The notes under the pieces are model-generated. The model searched no databases. It had not been told where the DNA came from and worked only from the letters and a program-made list of their open reading frames with translations. Below, piece after piece: positions 6,191 to 44,070 of a stretch of DNA of 64,000 nucleotides. How positions within the stretch are numbered: the first letter of the stretch is position 1; the number at the start of each line of letters is the position of its first letter. The stretch is from the NCBI GenBank assembly GCA_965216755.1, contig CBDCGL010000011.1:4256001-4320000 (forward strand), given 5' to 3'. The DNA comes from Alphaproteobacteria bacterium. GTDB lineage: Bacteria > Pseudomonadota > Alphaproteobacteria > UBA7887. Made by a program: the position numbers and the translations under genes.

Positions 6191-7192
6191 ATGAAACAGG
6201 TGATCAAGGCCGCCGCGAAAGCGGTCGACCGCGGTGTCGTTTCGGCGTCTTTGGCTGTCGCCAAGGAACGTCCAGCCTTGTTGAGCTTCACCTTTCACGG
6301 CTTGTTCGAGACACGCGATGAAGCGCGCGACGGGACGATCTATCCGCACCAAATGGTGACCATCGACGATTTGCACTTTTTCATTGGCCATTTCAAAAAC
6401 GCCGGCTATCGCTTCATCAGCCCTGCCGAGCTTCTCTCCGGGCTTGACGCCGATGGCCACTATGCGCTGATGACGTTTGACGATGGCTACGCCAACAATC
6501 TGCGCGCTCTGCCTGTGTTGCGGGAACACAATGCTCCGGCGACCTTTTTTGTGACGACGAATAACGTTGCGCGCAGCCGGTGCTTTTGGTGGGACGTGCA
6601 TTACCGCGAACGTACCGCCCAGGGCATGGGAAAAGGAGCCGTGATCGAAGAACAGGAGGCGTGGAAGCGGGCGCCGTTTAACGAGATCGAAAGTCGGACC
6701 CGGGAAGCTTTTGGCGACGGCGCGTTTGCGCCACGTGGCGAAACCGATCGACCCATGACCGAAGATGAACTTAAGGCGTTCGCGGCTGATCCTTTGGTGA
6801 CGATCGGCAACCACACGGCCGACCACGCGATCTTGACCATGTGTGATGCGGAGGCGCGTGACCGCCAGTTGCGCGATAGCCAGGCGTACTTCGGCCGTGC
6901 TTTGGGGTCTCCGCCGGACATCATTGCCTATCCGAATGGCAATTTTGACGACGCCGTTATTGCGGCGGCGCGCGCGGCGGGGCTCAAGCTTGGCATGATC
7001 GTCGGCCCACGAAAAACGCGGCTGCCGCTCGCCGACTCTGAAATGATGATGCTCGATCGTTACGTTATCGATCCCATAGAAGGTGGGCCGAGTCTCGAGC
7101 AGCAATGCCGCGCTTGTCGCAGCGACATCCAGATCCTTAACACTGTGCGCCGAGTGCGTCGGCTGCGCCGCGCGCATCAAGGCATGCAATAG
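6191..7192 (+). CDS. Polysaccharide deacetylase (CE4/NodB family)
   Basis: TFDDGYANN, IGNHTADH and AYPNG motifs. ATG 6191 preferred over the ORF-track start at 6014. Confidence 0.85.
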   Translation: MKQVIKAAAKAVDRGVVSASLAVAKERPALLSFTFHGLFETRDEARDGTIYPHQMVTIDDLHFFIGHFKNAGYRFISPAELLSGLDADGHYALMTFDDGYANNLRALPVLREHNAPATFFVTTNNVARSRCFWWDVHYRERTAQGMGKGAVIEEQEAWKRAPFNEIESRTREAFGDGAFAPRGETDRPMTEDELKAFAADPLVTIGNHTADHAILTMCDAEARDRQLRDSQAYFGRALGSPPDIIAYPNGNFDDAVIAAARAAGLKLGMIVGPRKTRLPLADSEMMMLDRYVIDPIEGGPSLEQQCRACRSDIQILNTVRRVRRLRRAHQGMQ

Positions 7193-7238
7193 TCGACGAT
7201 CGGGATAGCCAGACGATGATTGCGCGGTGGTTCGTGGG

Positions 7239-8735
7239 ATGACCCGCAAGGAAAGCGAATTTCGCGCGGTATGGCGACAAGGGCGCGTTTATGGACTGGG
7301 CAACGCGCTCAATCGAGTCGCAGCCCTCCTGCTGATTCCGGTTCTTCTCCATTCGCTGTCGGCCGAGGAATGGGGCGCCTACGCGCTGATCCTGATATTC
7401 AGTCAAGCGCTGTCCATGGGGGCGTCGGTGATCAACGACTCCATGGCACGTATCTATTACGACTATGAGGAAGAAACGAAACGTTGCCAGGTGGTCGGCA
7501 CGGCATTCGTTTTGTTCCTGATGGCCGCGGCGCTTCTGGGTGTTCTGGCTTACCCCTTGGCCATCGCCATAAATGGATTTCTGTTCGACCATGATCGCTA
7601 TTTCAACGCGGTGTTGTTGGCGAACTTCGGTGTCATTTTCGAGTTACTGCTGGGCATGTTGCTGATCTATGTGCGGTTGCGCCGCCGCCCGCTCATTTTT
7701 GTCTCGATCAGTCTTGCCCGGTCGCTTATTCAACTCAGTCTAAGCATCGTGTTGGTCGCCTATCTGGGTATGGGCGTCATGGGTGTGGTGATTGGGAATT
7801 TCGCCGCGATCACGCTGCTTTCGATTCCGGCGGCTGCGATGATGCTGCGGCATACCGGCCTTCATTACCGGCGACCGGTGGCGCGCGAGATGACCCGCTT
7901 GGCGGTACCGATGGTTCCCGCCTGGTTCGTGCGTAGCTCGTTCAATTTGATTGAGCGCACGATGCTCAATCAATTGACGACGACGGCGACGGTTGGCGTC
8001 TACGCGGTCGGTCGGCGACTGACGGAGCAATTCGACAATTTACTGACGCTGCCCTTCGCCCATGTCTGGGGCGTCCATTTGCTTGAAGTCGGCGATTCGG
8101 TGGAACGCGCGAAAGAGCTGAATCGGGTACTCAATTTGGTCATGTTCGTGCTGACCGGCGCGTCGCTTACATTGTCCCTGTTTTGCTTGGAGATTTTGCA
8201 GATCATCGCGGCGCCCGAATTTTGGGACGTGGCGCCGGTCATCCCGATCATGGCACTGACTGGTATTGTTGGTGTGCCGATCTATCATTTCGAGAGGTGT
8301 TTGCTTCAGAAAAAGCAGACAGTCTACATGCCGATCATCAACTGGAGCGTGGTCGCGTTCAGTATTGGCATATTCTTTATCATGATACCGATTCACCCAC
8401 TTTGGGGCACCGCGTGTGCCGGTCTGATGGTATTTCTTTTTAAGCTGTCACTGACGGTGTTTTTCGTCGCGCGGTGTTCCGACGTCCATAGGCTGTTTCC
8501 TTGGGGAGGCGTCGCGACCTATATCTTGTTGGCGATCATCACCTATGGCGTGTCGCTATGGCTGATCGGCGACACGGTCAGTCTGGCCGGGATTGCCGGA
8601 AAGCTTGCTTTGCTGGCGATCGGTGGCACGATCGCGTTCTACAGCCCGGCCTTCGATCGTGATGAACGGCGCGCGGCGATCGGCATGGCCAATGGCTTCG
8701 CCCAGCGGCTGGGTTTGAATTTCGGAGGACGGTGA
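7239..8735 (+). CDS. wzx: Wzx-type oligosaccharide flippase
   Basis: About 500 aa, many TM segments, N-terminal YGLGNALNRVAALLLIPV...LSAEEWG, internal VGVYAVG; polysaccharide-locus context. Confidence 0.85.
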   Translation: MTRKESEFRAVWRQGRVYGLGNALNRVAALLLIPVLLHSLSAEEWGAYALILIFSQALSMGASVINDSMARIYYDYEEETKRCQVVGTAFVLFLMAAALLGVLAYPLAIAINGFLFDHDRYFNAVLLANFGVIFELLLGMLLIYVRLRRRPLIFVSISLARSLIQLSLSIVLVAYLGMGVMGVVIGNFAAITLLSIPAAAMMLRHTGLHYRRPVAREMTRLAVPMVPAWFVRSSFNLIERTMLNQLTTTATVGVYAVGRRLTEQFDNLLTLPFAHVWGVHLLEVGDSVERAKELNRVLNLVMFVLTGASLTLSLFCLEILQIIAAPEFWDVAPVIPIMALTGIVGVPIYHFERCLLQKKQTVYMPIINWSVVAFSIGIFFIMIPIHPLWGTACAGLMVFLFKLSLTVFFVARCSDVHRLFPWGGVATYILLAIITYGVSLWLIGDTVSLAGIAGKLALLAIGGTIAFYSPAFDRDERRAAIGMANGFAQRLGLNFGGR

Positions 8736-8750
8736 AACCGCGCGCCAGGT

Positions 8751-10694
8751 TCAGACCAATTCGGGCGTGCGCGTTTGTTCTTCTGCCAGCGCATCTGCCG
8801 TCAAGCCATATTTTCTGCACCATACCTCAAACATGAGCAACGTCCATACGGCACGACTGTGATCCCGTGCGAGCGAGCGATGTTCGGCCAGCAAAGCGGC
8901 GACCGAATCACGATCGATGATCCGTGTCACCACGGAGTCCGAGGCCAGGATCCGGTCTTGGGCAAAGCGACCCAAGTCTTCCTTGAACCAATAAGTCATG
9001 GGGATCACGAAGCCCTGCTTACGCCGCCACAAAAATCCCTTGGGGAAGTAATTTTCCATGACCCGTTTCAAGATGTATTTGGTCTTGCCACCACACATAT
9101 GCGTGCGCAGCGCGATGCGGTTGGCAAGTTCGGCCAAGCGGTGATCCAGGAACGGCGTCCGTAATTCCAAACTGTGCGCCATACTCGTACGGTCTGTCTT
9201 GACCAGCATTTGGTCGGTCAAACTGGCGTGTTGGTGGAATAGGGCGAACGCTTCCAACGGCGACAGCGTATCATCGTAGAGCACGCGCAATTGGGCGCGG
9301 TCATTGGTATTGACGCAGAGTTGCGAAAGATAGTCCGACATAAGCGCCAGACGTTCGCGCCGAAAACCCTGTTGATGCTTAGAGTTTAGCCTTATGCGCG
9401 CCGGCAACTCGACGTCGGCGATATTCTGCGCCAGCCTGTCGAAGCGTTCCCGTCGCGCGGCATCTGTGGCGGGGAGGCGGCGCAATGCGGAGATCGCAGC
9501 GTTGCGAATAAAACTCGGAACATAGCGCAAACGTTCGCTGAGAATATGGCCACGATAACTGTCATAACCGGCGAACATTTCATCGCCGCCGTCACCGGTA
9601 AGCGCGACGGTGACCGACTCGCGCGCGTGTTCGGCCAGATACCAAACCGGCAAAGCCGCGGGATCCGCGAACGGTTCGTCCAAATGCCAAGCGAGCTCTT
9701 CGATCACGTCCAAAGACTGCGGCGTTAGAACGATTTCGTGGTGATTGATGCCGAACCGCTTCGCCACAAAACGCTGATAGGGGCGTTCGTCGTAGATCGT
9801 TTCTTCGAAGCCGATGCCGAACGTTTCCAGCCGTGTATCGCTGACATCTTGCGCGAGCGCGACGATGGCGCTCGAATCGACGCCGCCACTGAGGAAAAAC
9901 CCCAACGGCACGTCGCTGATCATGCGCTTCTCGACCGAATCCCTCAGCAATTCGTGGGTCAGACGGACGCCTTCGCGTTCATCGGTGATTTCCGGCGAAC
10001 CCCGTTGCGGCGTCCAATAGGGCCAGACCTTGCAGGAGCCAGCCTCAATTCGTAATGCATGTCCTGGCAATAATTTATGTACGCCGCGAAATATCGTGCC
10101 GGGACCACGTACGTAATTGTAGACGAAATACCAATAGAGACCCAGCGGGTCGATCTTGGGTTCAAAGACCCCGCCAACGAAAAGCGCCTTCAGTTCCGAC
10201 GCGAAATAGAAAGCATCGTCGGTCTCGCAATAGTAAAGGGGTTTTTCGCCAAACCGATCACGTGCCGCGAAGACCCGATTTTTTCGCTTGTCGTAAATGA
10301 CAAACGCAAACATGCCGTTCAGATGGTCAAGGCAGCCTTCACCCCACTCGACATAGGCGGCCAGCAATACTTCGGTATCGGATTTCCCGGTGAGATTGTG
10401 GCCGCGCCCACGTAGGATACGAGCCACCTCTTTATAGTTGTATATCTCACCATTATAGACCACGGCGAACGTGCCGTCGGGTGTTGTCATCGGCTGTTGA
10501 CCACCTACCAGGTCAATGACACTCAGCCGCCTATGCGCCATAAGTGCGGACCCTAGTTGCAACTCGCCATATTCGTCGGGCCCGCGATGAACGATCGCGG
10601 CCGCCATATCCCGCACGCGCGCGCGCTCGCGCGCAATCCAGCCAACGTTGCCGCTGACATGGTGCTTTTCATGAGTGAAGACAAACCCGCACAT
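8751..10694 (-). CDS. asnB: Asparagine synthase-like glutamine amidotransferase (copy 1)
   Basis: N-terminal MCG, HRGPD, HRRLSVID, NGEIYN, RDRFGEKPLYY, LSGGVDSS, TGDGGDE. Confidence 0.93.
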   Translation of the reverse strand: MCGFVFTHEKHHVSGNVGWIARERARVRDMAAAIVHRGPDEYGELQLGSALMAHRRLSVIDLVGGQQPMTTPDGTFAVVYNGEIYNYKEVARILRGRGHNLTGKSDTEVLLAAYVEWGEGCLDHLNGMFAFVIYDKRKNRVFAARDRFGEKPLYYCETDDAFYFASELKALFVGGVFEPKIDPLGLYWYFVYNYVRGPGTIFRGVHKLLPGHALRIEAGSCKVWPYWTPQRGSPEITDEREGVRLTHELLRDSVEKRMISDVPLGFFLSGGVDSSAIVALAQDVSDTRLETFGIGFEETIYDERPYQRFVAKRFGINHHEIVLTPQSLDVIEELAWHLDEPFADPAALPVWYLAEHARESVTVALTGDGGDEMFAGYDSYRGHILSERLRYVPSFIRNAAISALRRLPATDAARRERFDRLAQNIADVELPARIRLNSKHQQGFRRERLALMSDYLSQLCVNTNDRAQLRVLYDDTLSPLEAFALFHQHASLTDQMLVKTDRTSMAHSLELRTPFLDHRLAELANRIALRTHMCGGKTKYILKRVMENYFPKGFLWRRKQGFVIPMTYWFKEDLGRFAQDRILASDSVVTRIIDRDSVAALLAEHRSLARDHSRAVWTLLMFEVWCRKYGLTADALAEEQTRTPELV

Positions 10695-10962
10695 GGGCCC
10701 GCGCCTACCTCTTTGCCGCTCCGTCGAGGCCAGCCCCGAACATCGAGTGGCGCGACAAGATTGATGAAATTGCGAGCGGATCGTCGTTTCGGTTCACGCG
10801 AGACACTGTCATATTGCGGCTGTCGACGGCCGACTGTTGAGGGCGATTTGTTCGCGGCCCAGTGCCCGGCGGCGCGACGCGGCCAAGCGGGGCATATGGC
10901 GGCGCAGCCAAGGCACGCGTACGTGGCGATGACCTCGTTGGATTTTCGACACGCCTTGGAGT

Positions 10963-12075
10963 GTGAGGATGAACAATAGGTTGGCCGATATGAAGATTGT
11001 CTTCACGGGGGCCATAGCCCGGCCGGGCCAGCCCGCTGTTGGTGGCGTCGAGGCGAGCAATCGCGCGATTATCGACGCATTGGTCCACCGTGGTGTATCG
11101 GTCACCGAATTGCGCTACCCAACCCCCGATCGTCATGGCGGCATGGGCGCAAAGCTGGTGGCTTATGGTTTTGGCCTGCTTGCCGTCGCATGGCGCGAGA
11201 TTGTGACCGCGCCACGTTCGCAGTTGTTGCATGTGACCAGTCTTTATCGCCATTTCATCTATCCGGAGCTTGCTTATGTTTGTATCGGGCGCGTTCTCGG
11301 GAAACCGGTTTTCTTTCACATTCGAGGCGGCGACTGGCTGGAACAATATGGGAGACGAACCGGAATCTACCGGTGGGCGTGTGAACGTGCCCTGAAGTAC
11401 AGTCACTATGTTGCCGTTCAAGGCAAGGAAATAGTACCGTTTGTTGAAGAAAGAGAAGCAAAGTCATTTTATTTTCCAAATTTCGTCACGGTGCCGCCCC
11501 GTTTCAACCCCCGCCTTGAGCATCTGGGCGACACCATAAAGTTGGTTTATCTCGGCGCCTTACGGGAAGAAAAAGGTGTCGAGGTCGTGCTGCAAACACG
11601 GCGACAATTGGAGTTGTCCGGCAAAACTGCAACCGTGCGTTTGATCGGCGCCGGCGATGACGCGTATGTGGCCGGTCTCAGGGAGCGTTACGACGAAGCC
11701 AGCATCGAATGGCTGGGGGCGATCGACCACGACCGTGTCCGAGATGCCGTTGGCGGGTCGCATTTCTTCGTGTTTCCAACGCGTTGGCATGGCGAGGGAC
11801 AATCCAACGCTCTGACCGAATGTATGGCGGAGGGCGTGGTGCCGATTTGCAGCGACCATGGGTTCAACAAACGAATGGTGGCCGATGCCGGGACGGTTAT
11901 GGACAAATATGCCAGCGCCGAACAATATGCCGACGCGATCATCGACATTTGGGATCATGACCAGTGGCGTGCGCTGTCCGAGCTGTGCACAAAGCGCGTA
12001 CGCGACAGTTTTACCGCGGACGTTGTCATCGATCGTCTCATGTGCACCTATAAGGAGTTGGTTGACTCGCGGTAA
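10963..12075 (+). CDS. Glycosyltransferase family 4
   Basis: LVYLGALREEKGV and FVFPT..HGEGQSNALTECMAEG (EX7E motif). Confidence 0.88.
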   Translation: MRMNNRLADMKIVFTGAIARPGQPAVGGVEASNRAIIDALVHRGVSVTELRYPTPDRHGGMGAKLVAYGFGLLAVAWREIVTAPRSQLLHVTSLYRHFIYPELAYVCIGRVLGKPVFFHIRGGDWLEQYGRRTGIYRWACERALKYSHYVAVQGKEIVPFVEEREAKSFYFPNFVTVPPRFNPRLEHLGDTIKLVYLGALREEKGVEVVLQTRRQLELSGKTATVRLIGAGDDAYVAGLRERYDEASIEWLGAIDHDRVRDAVGGSHFFVFPTRWHGEGQSNALTECMAEGVVPICSDHGFNKRMVADAGTVMDKYASAEQYADAIIDIWDHDQWRALSELCTKRVRDSFTADVVIDRLMCTYKELVDSR

Positions 12076-13262
12076 CGCGATGCCATCGACGGCAAGGGAT
12101 TTCCCGCCAAGACACTGTGGTACAGCTTTAGATGCGCGCGCGCCATCGCCGTGAGGCTGTATTGTGCGTCGACCAAGTCGAACGCTCGCGCCCCACACGC
12201 TTCGGCCAAGCCTGGATTGGCCAGCATTTCGGTACAGGTCACCGCGGCTGCGGCGGCGTCGTCGAGCGGAAACAATCGACCCGTTTTGCTGTCATCGACG
12301 ATGTCATTGTGGCCGGGAATGTCGGTCGCAACGATGGGCAAAGCCCACGCCATGCCTTCCAAGAGCGCAAACGGCAGACCTTCCTCGCGCGACGCCGAAA
12401 TCATGACATCGGCCTTGCTCAGTCTTTCGCCGACATTCGTGACGGCACCGGCAAAGCGAACGACATCGGTCAGGCCGAGTGACCGTGCCTGGGCCTCGAA
12501 ACGCGCGCGATCAACACCATCCCCGAGAATGTCGAGCGTCGCGCGCGGATGTGACTCGTGGATCGCTTTCATGGCGTTGATCAGTGTCTCGACGCCTTTG
12601 CGCAGGTCCAATCGTCCGACAAACACCAGTGACGGTCCATCCGGATAATTGTTTTGCGCGCGCGCCAATCGCGCTGATCGTGACTCTTCAAGCTCTTCGG
12701 CCGAGGGTACGTCAACGCCGTTGGGGATCACTCGGACGTCGGCCTTGTCGATACCAAATTTGTGATAGAGCGAATCGCGTACGGACTCGGAGACAGCGAT
12801 ATTCTTGGCTGCGATCTTGATGCCATGCCGCAACATCTGCCGCCGGATCCAGCCGTATATCGGTCGGCCCTCCCCAGCCGCTTCCATCAGGTTTGTTGAG
12901 TGATGCGAGGCGACCATCGGGGGGCCACCCATGCGGTGCGCACGTGCCGCCCAAAACGTCGAGTCCGACATGTGTGCATGAATCAGGTCGACATCGTTCG
13001 CGGCGGCGATTTCGTGGACGCGTCGTGGAACCCTCGTCAGTCCGCGCAGCCCGATCACCGGACCAAAATTCAGAAGTGGTATATCCGCGTCGACAAACCG
13101 CGATTCGAGTGCGCCGCGTCGTCGCCACGGCAATACGATCGGCTGGCAGCCGAGCCCTTTCAATCCTTTCGACAGGCTCAGAACCGCCACCTGACCGCCG
13201 CCGATCTCGATTTCTCGAATGAGGAACAGCACCCGCAACGGTCGGTCGCGATCAGAAATCAT
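12048..13262 (-). CDS. Glycosyltransferase family 4
   Basis: IGGGQ, VIPNGVD, FVGRLDLRKG, SREEGLPFALLEGMA. Confidence 0.9.
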   Translation of the reverse strand: MISDRDRPLRVLFLIREIEIGGGQVAVLSLSKGLKGLGCQPIVLPWRRRGALESRFVDADIPLLNFGPVIGLRGLTRVPRRVHEIAAANDVDLIHAHMSDSTFWAARAHRMGGPPMVASHHSTNLMEAAGEGRPIYGWIRRQMLRHGIKIAAKNIAVSESVRDSLYHKFGIDKADVRVIPNGVDVPSAEELEESRSARLARAQNNYPDGPSLVFVGRLDLRKGVETLINAMKAIHESHPRATLDILGDGVDRARFEAQARSLGLTDVVRFAGAVTNVGERLSKADVMISASREEGLPFALLEGMAWALPIVATDIPGHNDIVDDSKTGRLFPLDDAAAAAVTCTEMLANPGLAEACGARAFDLVDAQYSLTAMARAHLKLYHSVLAGNPLPSMASRYRESTNSL

Positions 13263-13393
13263 CTCTGACCTCCGTGCTCAAGGTCGACGCCGCCCATTAT
13301 GCGCCCGCGTCAGTCTGTTTTCTTGCGATAAAGCGCATGGCGGCAACAAAACGCCACCGAAGCCGATCAACGGGCCATCGTCGGATCGGATTA

Positions 13394-14614
13394 TTACCGC
13401 CACAAAGAGCCATATGCCGCCAACAGATGCGGGACCTCATGCGGCCACGCCAGTTCATTCTCCACCCGCGCACGTCCAAATTCACCCATTGTCCGGCGCC
13501 GGTTCGGATCGTCCAATAACTCTAGAATCTTTTCGGCAAAATCGATCGCGTCGTCATGGCGCGCATAAAGCGACGCGTCGCGTGCCGAAAACCGTCCCTC
13601 GGTCATGTCGAATTGCACAACCGGCTTGGCCAGTGCCATGTATTCCATGATCTTGTTCATGGTGGATTTGTCGTTGAGGGCGTTGAACGAATCCGGATTG
13701 ACGCAAACATCTGCAGTGTTCAATACGGCGAGCAGTTCCTCGTCCGGCGCACGGCCGGTGAAATTGACATGATCCTGAAGTTTCAAATCATTTGCCAATG
13801 CAATCAGGGCATCAAGCTCAGGCCCCGAGCCGACCAGCGTGAAATGCACATCATCGCGGCCGAGGGTCTTGACGATATGTGCTGCCGCGCTGAGCAAGAG
13901 ATCGATACCTTCCTGCTGGCCCATCACACCGACATAGCCGACCAGGAAGGTTCGTCCGTGCTTGAGCGTCGGGTCGGGCGGCATGACCCGCATGCGGTCC
14001 AGGTTGGGACCAGAGCGCACAACAAACACTTGGTCTGCGCGTTTGCCGCCGCGCGTCGTCGCGATCTTTCTATAGGAATTGTTGGTGGCGATCACGGCGT
14101 CGGCTGTCCGAAACGTGCAGCGTTCGAACCAACACAACAGGCGATAAAAGAAATCGCGCCGCGCGAACTTCGCTTCGTAGAGCTCCGGCCCCAAGTCGTG
14201 CTGGTCGAATAGAAACTTCTTGCGAAAGAAAAGCTTAAAGAACCCACCGACCAAAAAGATTAGGTCTGGTGGGTTGCAGGCGTGGATGACATCGAATCCA
14301 CGCCGCCACAACACCACCCAGCTCAGATAGAACTCCCAGAACAAGGCGCTGGTATATTCCAGCAAGTAGCCGCGCGCGCCGCGCGCCTCCAAGGGCAGCG
14401 TGTGACGGTAAATGTGAATGCCGTCGATCACTTCGCGCCGCGCCTCGTGACCCTTACCGGTCGGGCAAATGACAGACACGTTATAGCCGGCCTGCTGCAA
14501 AGTGGTTGCTTCATGCCAGACCCGCCGATCGAACGGCACGGGCAGATTTTCGACGATGATCAGAACACGGCGTGGGCGCGGCACGGTCGAACGGTCACCA
14601 GTTGATGCCATCAT
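13394..14614 (-). CDS. Glycosyltransferase family 4 (WbuB-like)
   Basis: VLIIVENLPVPFDRRVW, HACNPPD, YVGVMGQQEG, STMNKIMEYMA. Confidence 0.9.
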   Translation of the reverse strand: MMASTGDRSTVPRPRRVLIIVENLPVPFDRRVWHEATTLQQAGYNVSVICPTGKGHEARREVIDGIHIYRHTLPLEARGARGYLLEYTSALFWEFYLSWVVLWRRGFDVIHACNPPDLIFLVGGFFKLFFRKKFLFDQHDLGPELYEAKFARRDFFYRLLCWFERCTFRTADAVIATNNSYRKIATTRGGKRADQVFVVRSGPNLDRMRVMPPDPTLKHGRTFLVGYVGVMGQQEGIDLLLSAAAHIVKTLGRDDVHFTLVGSGPELDALIALANDLKLQDHVNFTGRAPDEELLAVLNTADVCVNPDSFNALNDKSTMNKIMEYMALAKPVVQFDMTEGRFSARDASLYARHDDAIDFAEKILELLDDPNRRRTMGEFGRARVENELAWPHEVPHLLAAYGSLWR

Positions 14615-15923: not shown

Positions 15924-16154
15924 GGCTCGCTGTGACTTATCGGACGATGGGGTGGGCACCCACGTTCATGGCGGGCGAGAAGAACAGCCTTCCCCTACCT
16001 GATTTAACGTAGTCGCTGCCGTCGGCAAGGCGTGAGGCGCCGCACAATGAAACAACTGCGCCGCCGCACTCTGGCGCCATTGCCTTCGTCACGCAAGGGA
16101 GCCGGCGCGAAATTGCCGTGTTGGTGGATGAACGCACAGGCCACTTTTGGCTCA

Positions 16155-20065: not shown

Positions 20066-20121
20066 GGGCTAGGCCGCCCCCAGAGGCCGAACATGGCCGC
20101 CCATCGCCGAATTGGCGTGCT

Positions 20122-21186: not shown

Positions 21187-21470
21187 AAAGTTCCCCTGAT
21201 CGACCCGGCCCGCGATCAAACATGGCCGTGCCAGTTTCGGCTATATAATGTGGTGTGCCGCCGTCATTGAATCCCGCCGCGCCCCGCGCATTTTTTCGCG
21301 GGCAGAAATCGTGGCACCGTCTGACCATGTCGGTCGCGCGCCGTCATTCCCTGCCGCTGGAAAAGGCGGGCATTCGCGGGATGCGTGATACATTAATGCA
21401 TGATTGCATAACATCCCGTTGACGATGATCGCAGCGGCAGAGAAATCGGAACAAAACCCGCCATCGGTCA

Positions 21471-23018: not shown

Positions 23019-23021
23019 CGC

Positions 23022-25381: not shown

Positions 25382-25388
25382 GGCTGAA

Positions 25389-25538: not shown

Positions 25539-25552
25539 TTTAGGCGGCTCCG

Positions 25553-27388: not shown

Positions 27389-27758
27389 CCGACCGAGAAT
27401 AGAGCCGCATCGCCACCGGCGGCGGATAGTACGGTCGCACCTGGCAAGCAACCGCGTGCACGCGATAAGGTTTGAGCAGTGGACGGAGATATCGGGCGCC
27501 AATGTCGGCCTTAAAGGTCGAACCGGCGTTGCCGTTGGCGTGCGCGAAAAATGGTTATGGGTCGCGGATTCGGCTGCTTCGCCCAAGTTACAACTGTGCT
27601 GGCGGAGTTTGGCGAACTACGGCCACAAAGTCGGAATACGGACAATATCTGGATTGGCCGGAAACGTTGCGATGCGAGGGAACTGACAAGTCTTCGTTTC
27701 GACGAGGGCGGAGTCCGGAGACAAGCCGAAACAGCGAGCTGAACAAAGGTACAGGCAG

Positions 27759-32450: not shown

Positions 32451-32465
32451 ACGCACAAACGACAG

Positions 32466-36686: not shown

Positions 36687-39600
36687 TCTGTATCAAGGCA
36701 CGGACGGGTTGAGCCCAGAGCAGAGCGAACTTTTCGCGCTGATGCTGGATTATGAAGGACTCGACCCGCAGGAGCTGCCAATCGCGGCGCGTGGTGACGA
36801 CGCGCCCAACGCGCCACTGTCCCATACCCAAGAACGCTTTTGGTTTCTGAACCAAATGGCGCCGGACAGCCCGGCCTATAACGAGCCGATCGCCATGCGT
36901 TTGCAAGGTGCGTTGGATCGCGATGCGCTCACTCAGGCATTGACGGCCCTTTTACGACGGCATTCGGCGCTGCGCGTACGATTTGTGACCGATGGCGCAT
37001 CACTCGCGCAGACCATTGAACCGGTGCCCGACAACCCGCTGACTATCGAAGATCTTCGGGATGTCGCGGCAGATAATCGGCTGGCTCAGGCACAGGCGCG
37101 GGCGGCGGCGGTGACCGTTGCGCCGATGGACTTTTCCGTTGGGCCTCTTTACCGATTTCGCCTGTTTCAACTGGACGACCAAGATCATTTGCTCCTGATC
37201 GTTTTGCATCACGGCATTGCCGATGGCTTCTCGCTGCGTCTGCTGATGCGCGAATTGTCGGCCCTGTACGCCGCATTTTGCGCAGGTCAGCCGTCGCCGC
37301 TGCCCGACGTGCCGCTGCACTACACTGACTATGCCGCGTGGGAGCGTGCCGCGGCGGGCGAAACGCGGAGGCGCGATAGTCTGTCCTATTGGCGGCGCGT
37401 GCTGAGCGACGCGCCGGACCTGCTGGCATTGCCCACGGATCACCCGCGGCAATCAGCTTTCACGTTTCATGGTGCGACCGAACGTTTTGCGGTCGATAAC
37501 GAGCGGTCGACTGCCTTGCGTGATCTCAGTGCTGAACAAGGCGTTACGCTATTTATGACCATGCTGGCGGCGTTTCAGGCGCTGCTGCACCGTTATGCGC
37601 GTCAGGACATGATTTTGGTGGGCACGCCCGTATCCAGTCGTGAACGTCCTGAATTGGAAACCGTTGTTGGGTCGTTTGCCAACAATCTTGTTCTGCACGC
37701 CGACTGTGCTGACAATCCGCGGTTTGTCGATCTGCTGGCGCAGGTTTCCGACACCTCTTTGGAAGCTTTCTCGCATCAGGCCGTTCCGTTTGAAAAAGTT
37801 GTCGAGGCCGTTGATCCGAAGCGCGACGCCGGGTATAACCCATTGTTTCAGGTCGCTTTTTTACTTCACCAAAACACATTGCGTGATAATTTAGAGCTCT
37901 CTCATCTACGTGTCTCAGCGGTGCCGATCGAAACCGGCGCGACACGCTTCGATATCGACCTGATGCTTGAGGATACGCGCGCCGGGTTGGTGGGCACCCT
38001 GCATTACAACACTGACCTGTTCGAGCCGGCGACGATTGCGCGTTTGATAGGCCACTATCAGACCCTCTTGCAGGCGGTGGTCGATGATCCGCAGCAGCGT
38101 TTGTCGGATATCGCCCTGCTTGAAGCCGATGAGCGGGGGCTGCAGCTCGAGACTTGGAACAACACGGCGCAGGACTACGACCGCACCGCGACCCTTCACG
38201 GATTGATCGCGCGCCAGGCGGACCGCACGCCCGAGGCCGTCGCGGTTGTTGATGACGCCACGTCACTGACTTATGGCGAACTTGAGGCTCGCGCCAACGC
38301 GTTGGCGGCGCATCTGTGTCGGCATGGGGCCGAACCCGGCAAGATCGTTGGCGTCATGCTTGAGCGGCGGACTGATCTTTTGGTCGGTTTACTGGGCGTT
38401 TTGAAATCTGGCGCGGCCTATTTGCCGCTTGATCCCGGATTTCCGAAACGGCGCCTGTCGATGATGCTGGAAGACAGCGCCGCGCCTTTGATTGTCAGCG
38501 AGCCGTCGCTGGCTGCGGATGTCCCGGATTCGGCGGCGACAGTGGTGGATTTGTGCGACATCGCCACGTCCGGCGCCGCACCGCCTGACTCAGCGACGGC
38601 AGGCGCGGACGACTTGGCCTATGTGATCTTCACCTCGGGCTCCACCGGTCGGCCCAAGGGCGTGCAGATTAGCCATCGCAACGTGGTCAATTTCTTGACG
38701 AGCATGGCGAAAGCACCAGGCCTGAACGCCGACGATCGTCTATTGGCGGTGACGACCACGTCGTTCGACATATCGGTGCTTGAACTGTTTTTGCCCCTGA
38801 CTGTTGGGGCGACGGTCGTCTTGGCAGACCGAGACACCACCGCCGATGGCGACGCGTTGGCGGAGTTCGTCATGGAGTCCGGGGCCACGGTCATGCAGGC
38901 GACGCCGGCCACCTGGCAGCTTTTGATCGCTGCCGGATGGAACGGAGACATGGGCCTGAAGGCGCTGTGTGGTGGTGAGGCGTTGACCCGCGATTTGGCA
39001 CGCAGCCTGAAATCCCGTGTCGGTTGTCTGTGGAACATGTATGGGCCGACAGAGACGACGATTTGGTCGACATGCGCCGAAATCACCGATTCGGACGATA
39101 TCACGGTCGGGCGGCCAATCGCGAACACACAGATATACGTTTTAGACACCCATCGGCAACCTGCACCCATCGGTGTTCCCGGCGAGTTGTTTATTGGCGG
39201 CGATGGCGTGGCGCGCGGCTATCTCAATCGGCCAGACCTCACCGCTGAACGCTTTGTACCGGATCCGTTTCGGGCCGGCGATGCGTGCATGTACAATACC
39301 GGTGACCTGGCGCGGCTTCACGACGACGGCCGAATCGAACATCTGGGCCGGGTTGACAGCCAAGTCAAAGTACGCGGATTCCGCATTGAGTTGGGTGAGA
39401 TTGAGTCGGCCCTGTCAGAACATGACGGCCTCGCGCAAGCGGCTGTCGCGGTACGACACGCCAGCCCCAATGATGCGCGATTGATCGCGTATACCGTCAA
39501 TGCGGTCGCTGACCAACCGCCCACGGTTGGCGATCTTAGAAAACACCTCAGACAACGACTGCCGGACTATATGATCCCGCAGAAATTCGTTGAATTGGAC

Positions 39601-40026
39601 CGGCTGCCGCTAACGGCGAACAACAAAGTCGATCGTTTAGCTTTGCCGAATCCGTTCGAGGATGTCGCCGCCGTCGAAGACGATTATGTGCCGCCGCGGA
39701 CTCCGGCCGAAAAGCTGGTGGCGGGCATATGGCAGGATGTGTTGGGTGGTACGCGTGTTGGCGCGAATGATAATTTCTTCGAGGTCGGTGGTCACTCGTT
39801 GCTCGCTATGCAGGTCATTGCACGGATTCGGCAAGAAACCGGGCAGAAACTCTCTCCACGTGCTATGATATTGAATTCGCTGGAAAGAATCGCGGCCGAT
39901 CTCGGTCCGATCGGTGTTGTGACAAGTTCTGTCGCCGGCCCGTCCGAAGCCGAGACGGTGAACGATGATTCGGCGAATAGCTCTTTGCTAAAGCGCGTCA
40001 AAAGTTCGCTCTTTGGGCCGCAGTGA
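36679..40026 (+). CDS. NRPS terminal module C - A (Gly-like) - PCP, no thioesterase
   Basis: C: HHGIADG. A: FTSGSTGRPKG, SFDISVLE, MQATP, NMYGPTETTIWS. PCP: FFEVGGHSL, then only a short tail. ATG 36679 overlaps the previous stop. Confidence 0.92.
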   Translation: MTDLYQGTDGLSPEQSELFALMLDYEGLDPQELPIAARGDDAPNAPLSHTQERFWFLNQMAPDSPAYNEPIAMRLQGALDRDALTQALTALLRRHSALRVRFVTDGASLAQTIEPVPDNPLTIEDLRDVAADNRLAQAQARAAAVTVAPMDFSVGPLYRFRLFQLDDQDHLLLIVLHHGIADGFSLRLLMRELSALYAAFCAGQPSPLPDVPLHYTDYAAWERAAAGETRRRDSLSYWRRVLSDAPDLLALPTDHPRQSAFTFHGATERFAVDNERSTALRDLSAEQGVTLFMTMLAAFQALLHRYARQDMILVGTPVSSRERPELETVVGSFANNLVLHADCADNPRFVDLLAQVSDTSLEAFSHQAVPFEKVVEAVDPKRDAGYNPLFQVAFLLHQNTLRDNLELSHLRVSAVPIETGATRFDIDLMLEDTRAGLVGTLHYNTDLFEPATIARLIGHYQTLLQAVVDDPQQRLSDIALLEADERGLQLETWNNTAQDYDRTATLHGLIARQADRTPEAVAVVDDATSLTYGELEARANALAAHLCRHGAEPGKIVGVMLERRTDLLVGLLGVLKSGAAYLPLDPGFPKRRLSMMLEDSAAPLIVSEPSLAADVPDSAATVVDLCDIATSGAAPPDSATAGADDLAYVIFTSGSTGRPKGVQISHRNVVNFLTSMAKAPGLNADDRLLAVTTTSFDISVLELFLPLTVGATVVLADRDTTADGDALAEFVMESGATVMQATPATWQLLIAAGWNGDMGLKALCGGEALTRDLARSLKSRVGCLWNMYGPTETTIWSTCAEITDSDDITVGRPIANTQIYVLDTHRQPAPIGVPGELFIGGDGVARGYLNRPDLTAERFVPDPFRAGDACMYNTGDLARLHDDGRIEHLGRVDSQVKVRGFRIELGEIESALSEHDGLAQAAVAVRHASPNDARLIAYTVNAVADQPPTVGDLRKHLRQRLPDYMIPQKFVELDRLPLTANNKVDRLALPNPFEDVAAVEDDYVPPRTPAEKLVAGIWQDVLGGTRVGANDNFFEVGGHSLLAMQVIARIRQETGQKLSPRAMILNSLERIAADLGPIGVVTSSVAGPSEAETVNDDSANSSLLKRVKSSLFGPQ

Positions 40027-40085
40027 ACAGGACGCCAATCCCGACTCGAACGGGTGACGCATCGCGCGATGGGGATTGACTGGCA

Positions 40086-40883
40086 ATGATGCCGCAATAT
40101 TTTGGTGCTGAGAACGAACGGCTTTTTGGCGTTTATCAAGAGCCCACGCATGGCACAGACCATGACCATGGCGTGGTGCTGTGTTATCCCCTATGGCAGG
40201 AATATGTGCGGTCCCATCGCGCCTATCAGCGCTTGGCGGTTATGCTCGCGCGCCAGGGACACCACGTTTTCCGATTCGACTATTTTGGCTCCGGTGATTC
40301 GTCCGGATCCAGCGACGGCCTCACGATAGCCGCGTGCCTCGATAACATCGCCACGGCGATCGACGAGCTCAAGGACGTCGCGGGCGTCAGCCGCGTGTCA
40401 TTGGTCGGGCTACGGTTTGGCGCCACGCTGGCGGCGCTTGTCGGCGGCCACCGCGTTCCCTGCCACAGACTGGTGCTTTGGGATCCGGTGGTGGTCGGCG
40501 CGGATTATATGAATGGACTGCATGGCTTGCGCGACAAGGTGATGACGGCGTGCAGCTGGCGGCGCCGGCGGCCAAACGGTCTTGCCAGTATTGGGGCGCA
40601 TCAGCTCTTGGGATTCCCGGTCCCCGAGCCCGTCGCCGCCAATGTTTCGGCCGCCGATCTATTGTCGGTTGAAAAATTCCCGGCGCGCCGCGCCCTTGTG
40701 GTCGGTTCATCGGACAAGCCCAGCTACAAAACGCTGGTCGATCACATGGAGCGCCGTGGTACCAAGACGTCCTATCAAGTGGTCGAGGATGACGACGATT
40801 GGGACGAATTTTCCAAATACGATTTTATCCTCGTACCGCCAAACGCCCTGTCGGCGATCACGGCGTACCTTGCCGCGGGATAA
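40086..40883 (+). CDS. Alpha/beta-hydrolase-fold protein lacking the nucleophile (resembles exosortase-A-associated hydrolase 2)
   Basis: FRFDYFGSGDS; nucleophile elbow reads GLRFG; LVLWDPVV. Confidence 0.75.
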   Translation: MMPQYFGAENERLFGVYQEPTHGTDHDHGVVLCYPLWQEYVRSHRAYQRLAVMLARQGHHVFRFDYFGSGDSSGSSDGLTIAACLDNIATAIDELKDVAGVSRVSLVGLRFGATLAALVGGHRVPCHRLVLWDPVVVGADYMNGLHGLRDKVMTACSWRRRRPNGLASIGAHQLLGFPVPEPVAANVSAADLLSVEKFPARRALVVGSSDKPSYKTLVDHMERRGTKTSYQVVEDDDDWDEFSKYDFILVPPNALSAITAYLAAG

Positions 40884-40887
40884 AGCA

Positions 40888-41760
40888 ATGGAACGTGCGT
40901 TTGCCTTTGGCCCGCGATCGGCCTTGATCGGTACACTGACCGAGGCTGTTGACACGCCACTATCCGACCACCAGCCGGGTGTCATCCTGATCAATGCCGG
41001 GTTGGTTCATCGCATCGGTCCCGGCCGCCTGTACGTGGAAATCGCCCGTCGCCTGGCCGCACGGGGATTCCCGGCGTTCCGTTTCGACCAATCGGGCATC
41101 GGCGACAGCATGGCCCGGCGCGACGATGTCGCGTTTGAAAAACGTGCGCAGGAAGAAATCGTCGCGGCGATGGATTTGATGGTGGCGCAGGGTCAATGCC
41201 AGACTTTCGTGCTGATGGGGATTTGCTCTGGCGCCGACAATGCCCATCAGGTTGCGCTATCGGATCCGCGGGTTGTTGGCGCGGTTTATTTGGATGGTCC
41301 AGCTTATCGAACCGTGAAGTTCCTGGTGCGCCACTACGGCGTCCGGCTATTTCGACCACGCAGCTGGGCCGGACTTGTCGCGCGTCTGTTGGCCCGGATA
41401 TCGCGAACCGCCGGTGAACAACAGGAACCGACATATGTGCGCGAACTGCCGCCGCGTGAGCAATTCGGTCGTGAGTTATACAATTTGGCCGAACGCGGCA
41501 TGTCGCTGCTGCTGATCTTCACCGGTGGTTATCAACGTTACTACAATTATGAGCACCAGTTCGCCGATGTATTCGCACCATTGGCTGCGAACGCCGGTTT
41601 GCAGAACATCTTTCTGTCGCACTGCGACCATACGTTCGGGTTGGTCGAAGACCGTGCCGCCGTTATCGATATTATCGCGGATTGGATGTTGAACGCGTTC
41701 GGCGCGACCAATGACCGCCCGGTCGCTGAGACACTGCGCCAAGCGTCCGGTCAGGTCTGA
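40888..41760 (+). CDS. Alpha/beta-hydrolase-fold protein with Cys at the elbow (resembles exosortase-A-associated hydrolase 1)
   Basis: NAGLVHRIGPGR, FRFDQSGIGDS, GICSG, C-terminal DHTF. ATG 40888 lies 4 nt after the previous stop. Confidence 0.78.
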   Translation: MERAFAFGPRSALIGTLTEAVDTPLSDHQPGVILINAGLVHRIGPGRLYVEIARRLAARGFPAFRFDQSGIGDSMARRDDVAFEKRAQEEIVAAMDLMVAQGQCQTFVLMGICSGADNAHQVALSDPRVVGAVYLDGPAYRTVKFLVRHYGVRLFRPRSWAGLVARLLARISRTAGEQQEPTYVRELPPREQFGRELYNLAERGMSLLLIFTGGYQRYYNYEHQFADVFAPLAANAGLQNIFLSHCDHTFGLVEDRAAVIDIIADWMLNAFGATNDRPVAETLRQASGQV

Positions 41761-41790
41761 CAGGATTCACCTTGCGCTAGCGGGCGCGGG

Positions 41791-42549
41791 TTATGCGTGC
41801 GTGAAAGCGCTGGTAAGAATATGACTTGACGTGCAATGAAAGCGCCCAGAAATGCCTTGTCTTGGGCCAACCTGGCTGCCTTCGAAAACGATTTTGGCGC
41901 GAAAGGTTCCGCGCTCAGGGTCGATCGACAAGCGTACGTCCAAAAAGTCGAAGGGGATCCGGTGGGCCGGATATAGGCACTTGTACACGCTTTCTTTGGC
42001 GCTGAAAATTACCTTTGACCATCCGCTCGCCCGTGGTGCCGGCGTGACCCGCGCAAAGGCCATTTCGTCATTCGTGCAAATCATGTCGTTGAGATCGCAC
42101 CCCAACTCGCCGGCGCACTCAACATCAATGCCGATGCCATGAAAGACCTGCGCGCGCGCGACCGCCGCGACGCACAGATCCGTGCAGTGCGACAGACTGC
42201 CGACAATGCCGTGTGGCCATATCGGCACGCGGTCGGCATCACGCGGCAGTGGCGCCTGTTCATGTCCAAAGTAACCGAGCGCACGTCGCGCGCAGACCCG
42301 ACCAGCCGAATATTCGCGCCGTCGCTGCGACGTCGCCCGCACGAGCTCGTTTTCGCAGTCCAAACCAGCGCGATTGCCAACGCGATCGTCAATTTCGGCC
42401 ACGCCGTCAAGGTCGAGCATGGCCACGCTGACGCCGCCTGGAAACAACCGTGCTAGGCGCGAATCGGGCCGTGGCGCGCCAACTTGGTGGGCCAGTCCGA
42501 TGCCGGTCGCCGGCGACTGTTCGACGCTATCTAGTCCGGGCGAGAACAT
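41791..42549 (-). CDS. 4'-phosphopantetheinyl transferase (EntD/Sfp type)
   Basis: RRREYSAGRVCARRAL, PIWPHGIVGSLSHC, GIGIDVE, IFSAKESVYK. Confidence 0.92.
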   Translation of the reverse strand: MFSPGLDSVEQSPATGIGLAHQVGAPRPDSRLARLFPGGVSVAMLDLDGVAEIDDRVGNRAGLDCENELVRATSQRRREYSAGRVCARRALGYFGHEQAPLPRDADRVPIWPHGIVGSLSHCTDLCVAAVARAQVFHGIGIDVECAGELGCDLNDMICTNDEMAFARVTPAPRASGWSKVIFSAKESVYKCLYPAHRIPFDFLDVRLSIDPERGTFRAKIVFEGSQVGPRQGISGRFHCTSSHILTSAFTHA

Positions 42550-42561
42550 TGGCCTGACGCC

Positions 42562-44031
42562 CTAGTAGGCGTTTTCGTCGCCAAGCAGAACGAACAGTGT
42601 CTTGGCGATGATGACCAAATCCAGCCACACCGACCAATTGTCGATGTAGTAGAGGTCATATTCGACACGCTTTTGGATTTTTTCGATGGTGTCCGTTTCG
42701 CCACGCCAACCGTTAACTTGGGCCCAGCCCGTTATGCCGGGTTTCACGCGGTGTCGGGCGGCATAACGGTCGACGACTTCCTCAAATAGCCGCCCTTCGG
42801 CTTTGGTCGCCAGGGCGTGGGGACGCGGCCCAACAATCGACATGTCGCCACGTAAGACGTTTAGCAGTTGTGGAAACTCGTCCAGGCTGGTCTTGCGCAA
42901 CAAGGCGCCCACGCGCGTGACTCGCGGGTCACCGCGCGTGGTTTGGATCTCGCAGTTGGCGTCGTTCATATCGACGCGCATGGTGCGGAACTTCCACACC
43001 TCGATCAGCTTGTTGTTAAAGCCGTAACGACGTTGTTTGAAGAATATCGGACCCGGTGAATCGAGTTTCACGGCCAAGGCGATGATTGCCAGAGCGGGCG
43101 CAAAAAACAGTAAGGCAAGAAGCGCCAGAGTCCGGTCTTCGATCGCCTTCAGCACATGCGACCATCCGGATATCGGTCGGTCGAACAGATGCAGCATTGG
43201 CAGGCCGGCAACCTGCGTGAATGAACGATCGGCGAAATGCAGGCCGGCCAAATCCGGCGCCAGTCGGATCCGCACCGGCGTCAACGCCAAACGCTGCACC
43301 AAGGTCCGCAACCGGCTCTCGGCGCTCCACGGCACGGCGATAAACACCTGGTCGACGAGATTGCTGCGAATCAAGCGAATCAAGTGATCCGTATCGCCAA
43401 GGACCGGAAGGCCGTCGGCCGGCGGTACGATCCGGTTACGCCGATCATCGATAAAGCCGACAAGCTGGGTGCAGACATCGCCATACTGTTGCAAATGTTG
43501 CGACAAGCGCTGGCCATTCTCACCGGCGCCGACGATGACCGTGCGGCTGGCGAATCGGCCCTCTCGGGCCAGCGTTGCAACCCAATGGGCCAGCGCCCCG
43601 CGGCCGAAGCCCAGAACGATGAAGACGCTCACCATCCAGCCAACCGACCAGACACGCGAATACATGTCCGAAATCTTGACCGCGAAAGCGGTCGCCAACA
43701 GCGCGCCGCAAATCACGACCCACGCCGTCAAAACCCGGTCAAAACGTGGCGTGCGCGAGAAGATGTATTCCTCCGCATACACCCCAAACCATTGGAACAG
43801 GACGGCTGCCATGGTCATCGCGATCAACACCGCGACGACATATTCGCTCTCCACACCGGACGCCTCTGGATAAACACCATACGCGAAATAGATGCCCGCA
43901 CCGAGCAGCCCGATGACGCTCAGGTCAAAGAGCCGAAGGCATCCGCTGACGAACGCCGTGGAAATTGGCTGAACACGACGACCCGCCAGCGCTGGGTCGA
44001 GCGGTGTCTCAAATAGATTCGATTGCGTCAT
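42562..44031 (-). CDS. wcaJ: Undecaprenyl-phosphate glucose phosphotransferase (priming glycosyltransferase, WcaJ type)
   Basis: N-terminal TMs, [70 protein letters not shown]. Start at 44031 chosen from the promoter position. Confidence 0.93.
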
Positions 44032-44054
44032 TGCTTGTTCCATGGGAGTGGGAA

Positions 44055-44070
44055 AGCAAGGGGCATGCCA
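44055..44070 (-). promoter_or_regulatory. Sigma-54 (-24/-12) promoter of the wcaJ-PPTase unit
   Basis: Minus strand reads TGGCATG-CCCC-TTGCT, with exact GG-N10-GC spacing, about 25 nt upstream of ATG 44031. Confidence 0.7.

Follow-up and report, generated by a model that had tools for sequence, protein, structure and literature searches.

A 64,000-nucleotide stretch of contig CBDCGL010000011.1 (assembly GCA_965216755.1, an alphaproteobacterium of the UBA7887 lineage; positions 4,256,001 to 4,320,000), hereafter the window, carries a Wzx/Wzy-type glycan locus at 6014-44124 in which three nonribosomal peptide synthetase (NRPS) genes are embedded, followed directly by two small alpha/beta-fold genes that we call Hyd2 and Hyd1. 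We propose that these genes decorate a glycan, or its lipid-linked precursor, with a peptidyl group delivered from a carrier protein, an interpretation that we hold with about as much confidence as doubt. The repeat unit of a Wzx/Wzy surface glycan, or a lipid- or nucleotide-linked precursor, would be acylated with a short NRPS-made peptide. The assembly line would build an N-formyl-(alpha-hydroxy)glycyl unit, or a glyoxylyl unit after carbinolamide collapse, then a thiazole and then Gly, ending on the third peptidyl carrier protein domain (PCP3). Hyd1, paired in a heterodimer with Hyd2, which lacks the nucleophile, would accept this chain on Cys113 as a thioester and hand it to a sugar hydroxyl or amine at the cytoplasmic face, before flipping by Wzx; an amine exposed by the deacetylase of the locus is one candidate acceptor. 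We infer the product and its chemistry, and the functions of Hyd1, Hyd2, the embedded monooxygenase described below and the acceptor, from sequence, genomic context and structural models.

The gene calls rest on an open reading frame (ORF) listing and on Pfam and NCBIfam profile scans of the window ORFs (Table 1). The locus has the priming transferase, flippase, polymerase and glycosyltransferases (GTs) of a Wzx/Wzy-dependent system, with TIGR03023, PF13440, PF04932 and PF00534 above their cut-offs. Glycan genes flank the NRPS trio on both sides: the NRPS operon is convergent with a pair formed by wcaJ and, 12 nt downstream of it on the same strand, the gene for a 4'-phosphopantetheinyl transferase (PPTase). 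The genes of the trio are translationally coupled: their stop and start boundaries abut or overlap, the NRPS3 start overlapping the NRPS2 stop. Most of what the first-pass annotation said about this layout holds. It had placed three NRPS genes between wcaJ and a group of wzx, wzy-like, GT, algD, asnB, deacetylase and SGNH genes, and Pfam and NCBIfam agree. It had the last module ending at a carrier with no thioesterase (TE) or reductase: Pfam finds no TE (PF00975) or reductase domain for release in cis in NRPS1-3, and the NRPS3 C-terminus lies ∼40 residues past its PCP. It had also noted no exporter or TonB receptor, and no ABC, MFS, RND or TonB family was found by Pfam among the ORFs scanned at 6-44 kb, where Wzx is the sole transporter-like gene. 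Its view that the line has no off-loading step at the locus is wrong, since Hyd2 and Hyd1 directly follow NRPS3. It had missed this pair, and also a monooxygenase embedded in module 1.

The Hyd2 gene begins 60 nt past NRPS3, and the Hyd1 gene 5 nt past Hyd2. Neither product has the elbow of a canonical serine alpha/beta hydrolase (G-x-S-x-G): the motif is G-x-C-x-G in Hyd1 and G-x-R-x-G in Hyd2. Structural models, each with a predicted local distance difference test (pLDDT) value of 88.7, place C113 of Hyd1 at a strand-helix elbow (strand 107-112, helix 114-125) and R110 of Hyd2 at the equivalent elbow (strand 103-109, helix 111-122). A hydropathy scan finds no transmembrane (TM)-like segment in either protein, and both are predicted to be soluble and cytoplasmic. 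Among plasmid-borne relatives the elbow Cys is present in 7/7, and the Hyd2-like elbow carries Arg in 6/7 and Gly in 1/7. The best NCBIfam matches are TIGR03100 for Hyd1 (score 79.6, cut-off 168.45) and TIGR03101 for Hyd2 (67.8, cut-off 202.75); both fall below the cut-off, as do all 20 family members that match either model. Hyd1, Hyd2 and their relatives are thus a sister family, as yet unnamed, in which the Hyd1 family counts 886 representatives at E≤1e-30. PDB sequence and fold searches yielded no function for Hyd1 or Hyd2, the matches being generic esterases and lipases (TM-scores of 0.5-0.77).

Hyd1 and Hyd2 are predicted to form a heterodimer. The modelled complex scores 0.88, compared with 0.00 for the best control; runs agree on at least 74% of contacts, and the pLDDT of the partners is at least 86. 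In the calibration of this score, 116 of 157 solved complexes and 2 of 215 mismatched pairs reach the mark, counts that hold roughly for predictions made, as here, with our own alignments. The predicted interface includes Hyd1 residues 244-256, around His248. Natural Hyd2-Hyd1 fusions occur in P0265, P0367 and P0376 and in five plasmid-borne members.

The Hyd pair lies directly after a TE-less, carrier-ending gene in 5/5 instances: in the window, in loci L001 and L049, and twice in L034. In L001 the pair follows a polyketide synthase (PKS) of KS-AT-KR-DH-ACP architecture, and the counterpart synthases in L002, L003, L004 and L006 end in a TE. Because L001, L034 and L049 had been fetched with an alignment of NRPS1, and were thus chosen by NRPS likeness, we added a search of annotated plasmids (PLSDB) with Hyd1 alone and no NRPS pre-selection. 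This gave 17 records, from which 7 contexts were opened, one of them (Rhizobium T136) unannotated. A carrier protein or an NRPS/PKS is found near Hyd1 in 6/6 annotated contexts, at a distance of at most 3 genes in Variovorax and Shinella, 5-6 genes in Azospirillum and Mycetohabitans, and ∼7 kb across an insertion sequence element in B. gladioli. Three of the six place Hyd1 within a polysaccharide locus. In Variovorax paradoxus VAI-C a co-directional array runs from a TE-less PKS/NRPS through PPTase, Hyd2, Hyd1, Wza, Wzc, Bac_transf, GDP-fucose synthase and GTs to a flippase (polysaccharide biosynthesis protein). The order in B. gladioli BSR3 is flippase, fused Hyd, Wza, Wzc, Wzy polymerase, acyltransferase and GTs, and the Shinella plasmid has GTs, an NDP-sugar dehydrogenase, a deacetylase, a flippase, a fused Hyd, an acyl carrier protein (ACP), an AMP-binding ligase, a pyridoxal phosphate (PLP) enzyme and an ATP-grasp protein. 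Two Azospirillum cassettes and one from Mycetohabitans consist of an ACP, an acyl-CoA dehydrogenase-like protein, an amino acid-[ACP] ligase, DUF1839, a GH2-family protein and a fused Hyd2-Hyd1.

The Azospirillum/Mycetohabitans cassette (L079:2354-9942, L083:1947-9948 and L086:2348-9993) ties the Hyd pair to carrier-protein ligases resembling aminoacyl-tRNA synthetases. L034, a contig from a gammaproteobacterial metagenome-assembled genome (MAG), has two convergently oriented genes that end in a carrier without a TE, and behind each comes a separate Hyd2-Hyd1 pair (3967-5582, plus strand, and 10910-13793, minus strand), and between the two pairs lie genes for a GT4, a PPTase and a type I phosphodiesterase-family protein. 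We considered whether the window deacetylase and flippase are orthologues of those in Shinella and B. gladioli and rejected this: the likeness is at the family level, and it is the Hyd pair that is shared.

The first module of the assembly line belongs to a widespread family. Of the 120 best database matches, most (not exactly counted) are proteins of ∼1,560 residues in which a formyltransferase (F) domain, an adenylation (A) domain split by a luciferase-like monooxygenase (LLM) and a PCP follow one another, F-A(LLM)-PCP, with 46-50% identity over at least 97% of NRPS1. We examined 22 fetched loci having a full-length F-A(LLM)-PCP gene and long flanks by local tblastn, using Pfam-verified seeds and 10-kb flanks. 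At least one GT lies within 10 kb in 19/22, Wzx and/or Wzz in 15/22 and a WcaJ-like protein in 2/22; L002, L003 and L070 have no matches to any of these in their 10-kb flanks. Loci checked with Pfam (L004, L006 from Salinivenus, L010 and L014) agree with a glycan-locus setting. L004 reads GT4, GT2, Wzx, PKS-TE, GT2, NRPS, PPTase, Wzz and further genes, and L014, from Agrobacterium, reads Wzx, GT4, NRPS, PPTase, GT4, Wzc-like, Wza and Wzy, with no PKS or TE. Three annotated plasmid contexts (Aminobacter, Shinella zoogloeoides and Paracoccus), drawn from 19 records with at least 80% coverage, were opened, and in 3/3 the neighbours are GT, Wzy, Wza, flippase and priming-transferase genes. One family member, P0103, is fused to a FemAB-like acyltransferase domain (PF13480). 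A quick tree weakly unites NRPS1 with the other member that has a Hyd pair, L001. Two Hyd2 relatives match two F-A(LLM)-PCP relatives in the size of their longest contigs (P0426 and P0041, 223,918 bp; P0496 and P0032, 88,017 bp), which suggests that P0426 with P0041, and P0496 with P0032, share contigs in other MAGs. An anchored SGNH component in common with L014 was rejected, its 440-residue protein having no similarity to the SGNH proteins of the window.

The chemistry of the line can be read in part from its domains. TIGR01733 is above cut-off in NRPS1-3, and core motifs and PCP serines are readable, as in modular (type A) NRPSs. The formylating initiation module (PF00551 with PF02911) has N94, H96 and D132 invariant in 27/27 sequences. 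A PDB sequence search with the F domain returns the ArnA formyltransferase domain (E 1e-19), GDP-perosamine formyltransferase (E 4.5e-16) and LgrA (E 8e-11). This domain (27759-28748) is thus nearer to ArnA and the sugar N-formyltransferases than to LgrA, and its substrate candidates are Gly-S-PCP and a sugar amine. The LLM domain (TIGR04020, 496.2 bits, cut-off 244.45) lies inside the module-1 A domain, after FDxS and before NxYGPTE; it is of the MupA/Atu3671 type within a monooxygenase-interrupted Gly A domain, and is predicted to be a hydroxylase. NRPS2 has the features of an azole-forming module, with the cyclization (Cy) motif D-x4-D-x2-S (D-A-L-L-I-D-G-W-S) and an oxidase (Ox) domain, PF00881, at residues 1171-1347. 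The HHxxxDG motif of the condensation (C) domain is present in NRPS3.

At positions that we assigned by GrsA numbering, the A-domain codes read DILQFGMIWK in module 1, DLYNFGTLWK in module 2 and DILQLGMIWK in module 3. Position 301 of module 2 is G, compared with S in Cys codes. An excerpt of PMC12283262 gives DILQLGMIWK as the code of Gly domains with an embedded monooxygenase, one residue apart from module 1, and a Cys pattern of D, L, Y/W, N ... W, K. DLYNFGTLWK fits the Cys pattern of that excerpt at 235, 236, 239, 278, 331 and 517 and departs from it at 299, 322 and 330, a partial match that makes module 2 Cys-like but divergent. According to excerpts of PMC10204066 and PMC11342130, a monooxygenase domain inserted between motifs a4 and a5 of a Gly A domain hydroxylates the C-alpha of the glycyl unit, after which the carbinolamide is either cleaved to an amide and a glyoxylyl thioester (myxothiazol, melithiazol) or retained (solanimycin B). 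Given the monooxygenase in its Gly A domain, the starter unit is more likely to be N-formyl-alpha-hydroxyglycyl or glyoxylyl than plain formyl-Gly. The first-pass annotation had read the product as formyl-Gly, then a thiazole or oxazole, then Gly. Its starter fits the formyltransferase domain and the Gly-type code, and plain formyl-Gly is made improbable by the embedded monooxygenase; its azole and final Gly agree with the Cy and Ox motifs and the module-3 code, the second A code being Cys-like.

It is instructive to compare this arrangement with systems already described. One is the conserved hybrid PKS/NRPS cluster of roseobacters (Martens et al. 2007, as cited in an excerpt of PMC5014874), which comprises a PKS, a glycosyl transferase, an NRPS and a PPTase, and whose product had not been identified as of 2016; our literature search found no later identification. 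Its NRPS has the same F-A(LLM)-PCP architecture, is 41-46% identical to NRPS1 over almost the full length, and is surrounded by GT, Wzx and Wzz genes, a PPTase gene adjoining it. Unlike the window, that cluster has a KS-AT-DH-KR-ACP-TE PKS as partner and lacks Cy/Ox and C-A-PCP modules and the Hyd2/Hyd1 pair. A second likeness is to the exosortase A (XrtA/PEP-CTERM) hydrolases 1 and 2 (TIGR03100, TIGR03101) and acyl-CoA ligase TIGR03098, where, as with the Hyd pair, paired divergent alpha/beta paralogues occur near an adenylating enzyme and a carrier in exopolysaccharide contexts. The Shinella locus shows the corresponding form, with ligase, ACP and PLP enzyme. The scores given above set Hyd1 and Hyd2 outside these two families, and the 64-kb window showed neither an exosortase nor a PEP-CTERM gene. 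Our search found no biochemical description of the TIGR03100/TIGR03101 pair in the literature, and the terms hydrolase, acyl carrier, decarboxylase and acyl-CoA do not occur in PMC1569441 (Haft 2006).

In Dlt D-alanylation (DltA/DltC/DltB/DltD) the acyl group, once loaded onto a carrier by an adenylation enzyme, is finally attached to teichoic acid. The proposal for the window resembles this in having an adenylation-loaded carrier and an envelope polymer as destination. In contrast, Dlt uses a single amino acid, an MBOAT protein and the extracellular DltD, whereas the window has a three-module NRPS and soluble candidate transferases predicted to be cytoplasmic. No MBOAT (DltB) or DltD family occurs among the ORFs scanned, and the DltA matches reflect generic A-domain likeness. 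MtaG and MelG (myxothiazol, melithiazol) and SolF (solanimycin) resemble module 1 in having a monooxygenase between a4 and a5 of a Gly A domain, with a code one residue off; their modules are terminal or internal, whereas module 1 of the window is a starter fused to a formyltransferase domain. LgrA, the linear gramicidin synthetase (PDB 5ES5), shares with NRPS1 the F-A-PCP starter and the catalytic Asn, His and Asp of the formyltransferase, but NRPS1 differs in an F domain nearer the ArnA type and in an extra C-domain remnant and the monooxygenase. SyrC and CmaE have an active-site Cys, and the acceptor of CouN7 is a sugar hydroxyl. Enzymes of this kind are free-standing and move an acyl group from a T domain to an acceptor other than water (excerpt of PMC8748450). 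The role proposed for Hyd1, carrier-to-acceptor transfer, is like theirs by function, with no sequence relationship seen, and Hyd1 differs in its obligatory nucleophile-less partner. A literature search returned nothing on an NRPS-decorated Wzy glycan or on a starter module combining F and LLM domains.

How well does decoration of a glycan stand against other explanations? Its strongest competitor, which we nevertheless consider unlikely, is synthesis of a small thiazole peptide that stays free, for instance as a metallophore, a signal or a metabolite associated with the matrix, with Hyd1/Hyd2 acting as a trans TE that releases an acid and the glycan link amounting to co-regulation or shared export. 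A Cys-His-Asp alpha/beta enzyme can also merely hydrolyse: Hyd1 has a complete hydrolase-type triad, and the models of Hyd1 and Hyd2 match esterases and lipases alone. Relatives of module 1 bear or feed a TE, since P0058 carries its own and those in L002, L003, L004 and L006 pass to TE-ending PKSs and so to carrier release, even in glycan loci. The Hyd pairs of L001, whose sequence stops right past them, and of L049 have no glycan genes in the available flanks or downstream, respectively. NRPS2 and NRPS3 resemble ordinary secondary-metabolite modules, their nearest relatives among the fetched loci lying in ordinary NRPS clusters. Finally, the 370-nt gap between the carbamoyltransferase gene and NRPS1 (27389-27758), in which there is no convincing ORF, Rfam match or clear promoter-like site, may contain regulatory sequence specific to the NRPS operon, so that the operon may be separately regulated.

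Most of these points count against decoration, and there are others. An NRPS2-based protein scan of 185,579 species genomes gave 9 pattern matches and 0 relatives, so that no close relative of the trio was found there. Pfam and NCBIfam detect neither Wza/Wzc-type export or chain-length genes nor an exosortase or MBOAT in the window, and L002 and L003 have no glycan genes in their 10-kb flanks. The loci of the module-1 family are a biased sample, 78 loci taken from the best 80 of more than 630 matches to an alignment scan with two generic A-domain patterns. Moreover, 16 of the 19 GT-linked loci form one Rhodobacterales clade in a quick tree; the 19/22 are therefore not independent events, and independent support comes from ∼4-5 lineages plus the window.

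Against a free peptide stand four observations. Wzx is the only exporter at the locus; the PPTase gene directly follows wcaJ on the same strand; the strict conservation of a Cys nucleophile together with a nucleophile-less partner is not obviously needed for plain hydrolysis; and the Hyd pair recurs in Wzx/Wzy/Wza/Wzc arrays of three further genera. The first-pass idea that a TE-less NRPS feeds a glycan is strengthened by the module-1 family in GT/Wzx/Wzz/Wzy loci and by Hyd pairs beside carriers in polysaccharide loci; a product freed by hydrolysis is the less likely outcome.

A second alternative is that the peptide is an aglycone or anchor: GTs would glycosylate the NRPS product, or the peptide would be joined to a lipid or protein, and Wzx would export a glycopeptide or glycolipopeptide. 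The GT2 gene between the PKS and NRPS genes of roseobacter-type loci is consistent with this, as are the lipopeptide-like assembly lines with an aminotransferase module in Variovorax and L049 and the FeeM-like N-acyl amino acid synthase near the Hyd pair in L049. In the window, however, the Wzy_C polymerase and the polyprenyl-phosphate priming transferase point to a polymer on a lipid carrier, and Pfam finds no lipid-loading domain in the NRPSs, which makes this alternative improbable. Chance adjacency, by insertion of an unrelated NRPS cluster into a polysaccharide locus, finds room in the lack of a close trio relative for synteny comparison but is very improbable, as the locus is uniform in GC content (0.556-0.624), no transposase or mobile-element families were found in the window ORFs (Pfam/NCBIfam), the PPTase gene adjoins wcaJ, and several lineages have the module-1 family, or the Hyd pair, together with glycan genes.

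The remaining genes of the locus are listed in Table 1. Both AsnB-type proteins score below the cut-off of TIGR03108, the XrtA/PEP-CTERM amidotransferase (816.9), the first at 534.7. The Wzy_C polymerase gene sits between two genes for membrane-anchored SGNH proteins, of which that at 20122-21219 is a weak paralogue of that at 23022-24140. ORF 27369-27686 was rejected as a gene: it is Arg-rich, has no family match and looks non-coding. An Rfam scan of the whole window gave 0 matches, and promoter and terminator scans gave counts at or near shuffle expectation.

Table 1. Genes of the glycan locus, with window coordinates, strand and supporting matches (scores are given with their cut-offs).
Feature	Coordinates	Strand	Evidence
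Polysaccharide deacetylase family protein	6014-7192	+	PF01522 E 9e-25; hydropathy: no TM-like segment, no signal-like N-terminus
Wzx-like flippase (MOP family)	7227-8735	+	PF13440 32.2 bits, cut-off 23; 12 TM-like segments
AsnB-type glutamine amidotransferase 1	8751-10694	-	PF00733/PF13537; TIGR01536 472, cut-off 267
Glycosyltransferase, GT1/GT4 C-terminal domain	10963-12075	+	PF00534 E 9e-16
GT4 glycosyltransferase	12048-13262	-	PF00534, PF13439
GT4 glycosyltransferase	13394-14614	-	PF13692, PF00534
NDP-sugar dehydrogenase (algD of the first-pass annotation)	14595-15959	-	PF03721/PF00984/PF03720; TIGR03026 410.9, cut-off 189.8
Heparinase II/III-like protein	16155-18224	-	PF07940, PF16889
AsnB-type glutamine amidotransferase 2	18173-20065	-	PF00733 E 2e-108; TIGR03108 542.8, below cut-off 816.9
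SGNH/GDSL-like protein	20122-21219	-	PF13472 30.7 bits, just under cut-off 32.9; one N-terminal TM-like anchor, TM 25-55
Wzy_C / O-antigen-ligase-like polymerase	21471-23018	+	PF04932 64.7, cut-off 31.7; 9 TM-like segments
SGNH/GDSL-like protein	23022-24140	-	PF13472 37.3, cut-off 32.9; N-terminal TM-like anchor
SxtJ-like small membrane protein	24875-25381	+	PF19588 38.7, cut-off 24.4; 3 TM-like segments
Carbamoyltransferase (NodU/CmcH type)	25553-27388	+	PF02543 E 5e-110, PF16861
NRPS1: formyltransferase domain, C-domain remnant, A (Gly-type code) split by luciferase-like monooxygenase, PCP	27759-32450	+	PF00551, PF02911, PF00501 (2 stretches), PF00296, PF00550
NRPS2: Cy, A (Cys-like code), PCP, Ox (nitroreductase-type)	32466-36686	+	PF00668, PF00501, PF00550, PF00881
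NRPS3: C, A (Gly code), PCP	36679-40026	+	PF00668, PF00501, PF00550; ATG within ORF opening at 36562
Hyd2: alpha/beta-fold, Arg at nucleophile position (G-L-R-F-G), predicted non-catalytic partner	40086-40883	+	R110 invariant 30/30
Hyd1: alpha/beta-fold, Cys nucleophile (G-I-C-S-G), candidate transacylase or thioesterase for PCP3	40888-41760	+	C113, D136, H248 invariant 30/30
Sfp-type 4'-phosphopantetheinyl transferase (PPTase)	41791-42549	-	PF17837, PF01648
WcaJ-type priming polyprenyl-phosphate sugar-phosphate transferase	42562-44124	-	PF02397, PF13727; TIGR03023 508.8, cut-off 410.75

Outside the locus, the window has just upstream a GH3-family protein resembling the lyso-ornithine lipid synthetase OlsH (2-1411, minus strand; 530 bits, cut-off 620) and a penicillin-amidase (Ntn) family protein (1318-3672, minus strand). 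Downstream, after VanZ-like and Sel1/trypsin-like genes, a long-chain acyl-CoA ligase-like gene is followed by an overlapping ORF with a weak ATP-grasp match (PF02786, E 7e-5), together at 46739-49877 on the plus strand. A gene for an Rrf2-family regulator then precedes a complete, housekeeping SUF operon (SufB, SufC, SufD, SufS, a NifU-like scaffold and two further Fe-S assembly genes; 50013-56742, plus strand), and a Lys/Ala-rich histone H1-like protein of the HC2 family is encoded at 56986-57816 (minus strand).

Beyond the window we put forward, tentatively and with more doubt than confidence, a broader claim: Hyd1/Hyd2 would be a previously undescribed heterodimeric off-loading device, a Cys transacylase with an Arg pseudo-enzyme, that loads carrier-bound acyl or peptidyl chains onto surface glycans and marks out a class of "assembly-line-decorated polysaccharides" widespread in Proteobacteria and beyond. 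The substituent in the window would be an NRPS thiazole peptide whose first unit the embedded monooxygenase oxidises, possibly to a reactive glyoxylyl or aldehyde that could cross-link the matrix, and the roseobacter product would be of the same class.

Amino-acid and acyl decorations affect the binding, aggregation and recognition of surface polysaccharides, and for many such decorations we know of no enzyme that attaches them. If our proposal is correct, it would provide a testable route from thiotemplate assembly lines into glycan biosynthesis, with a Cys/Arg hydrolase pair beside a TE-less carrier as the sequence marker of such systems. It would also be a caution for genome mining, in that some "orphan NRPS clusters" may never give a free metabolite. 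Finally, it would supply a concrete hypothesis both for the product of the roseobacter PKS/NRPS cluster (not identified as of 2016, according to the excerpt of PMC5014874) and for the exosortase-A-associated alpha/beta pair named by NCBIfam.

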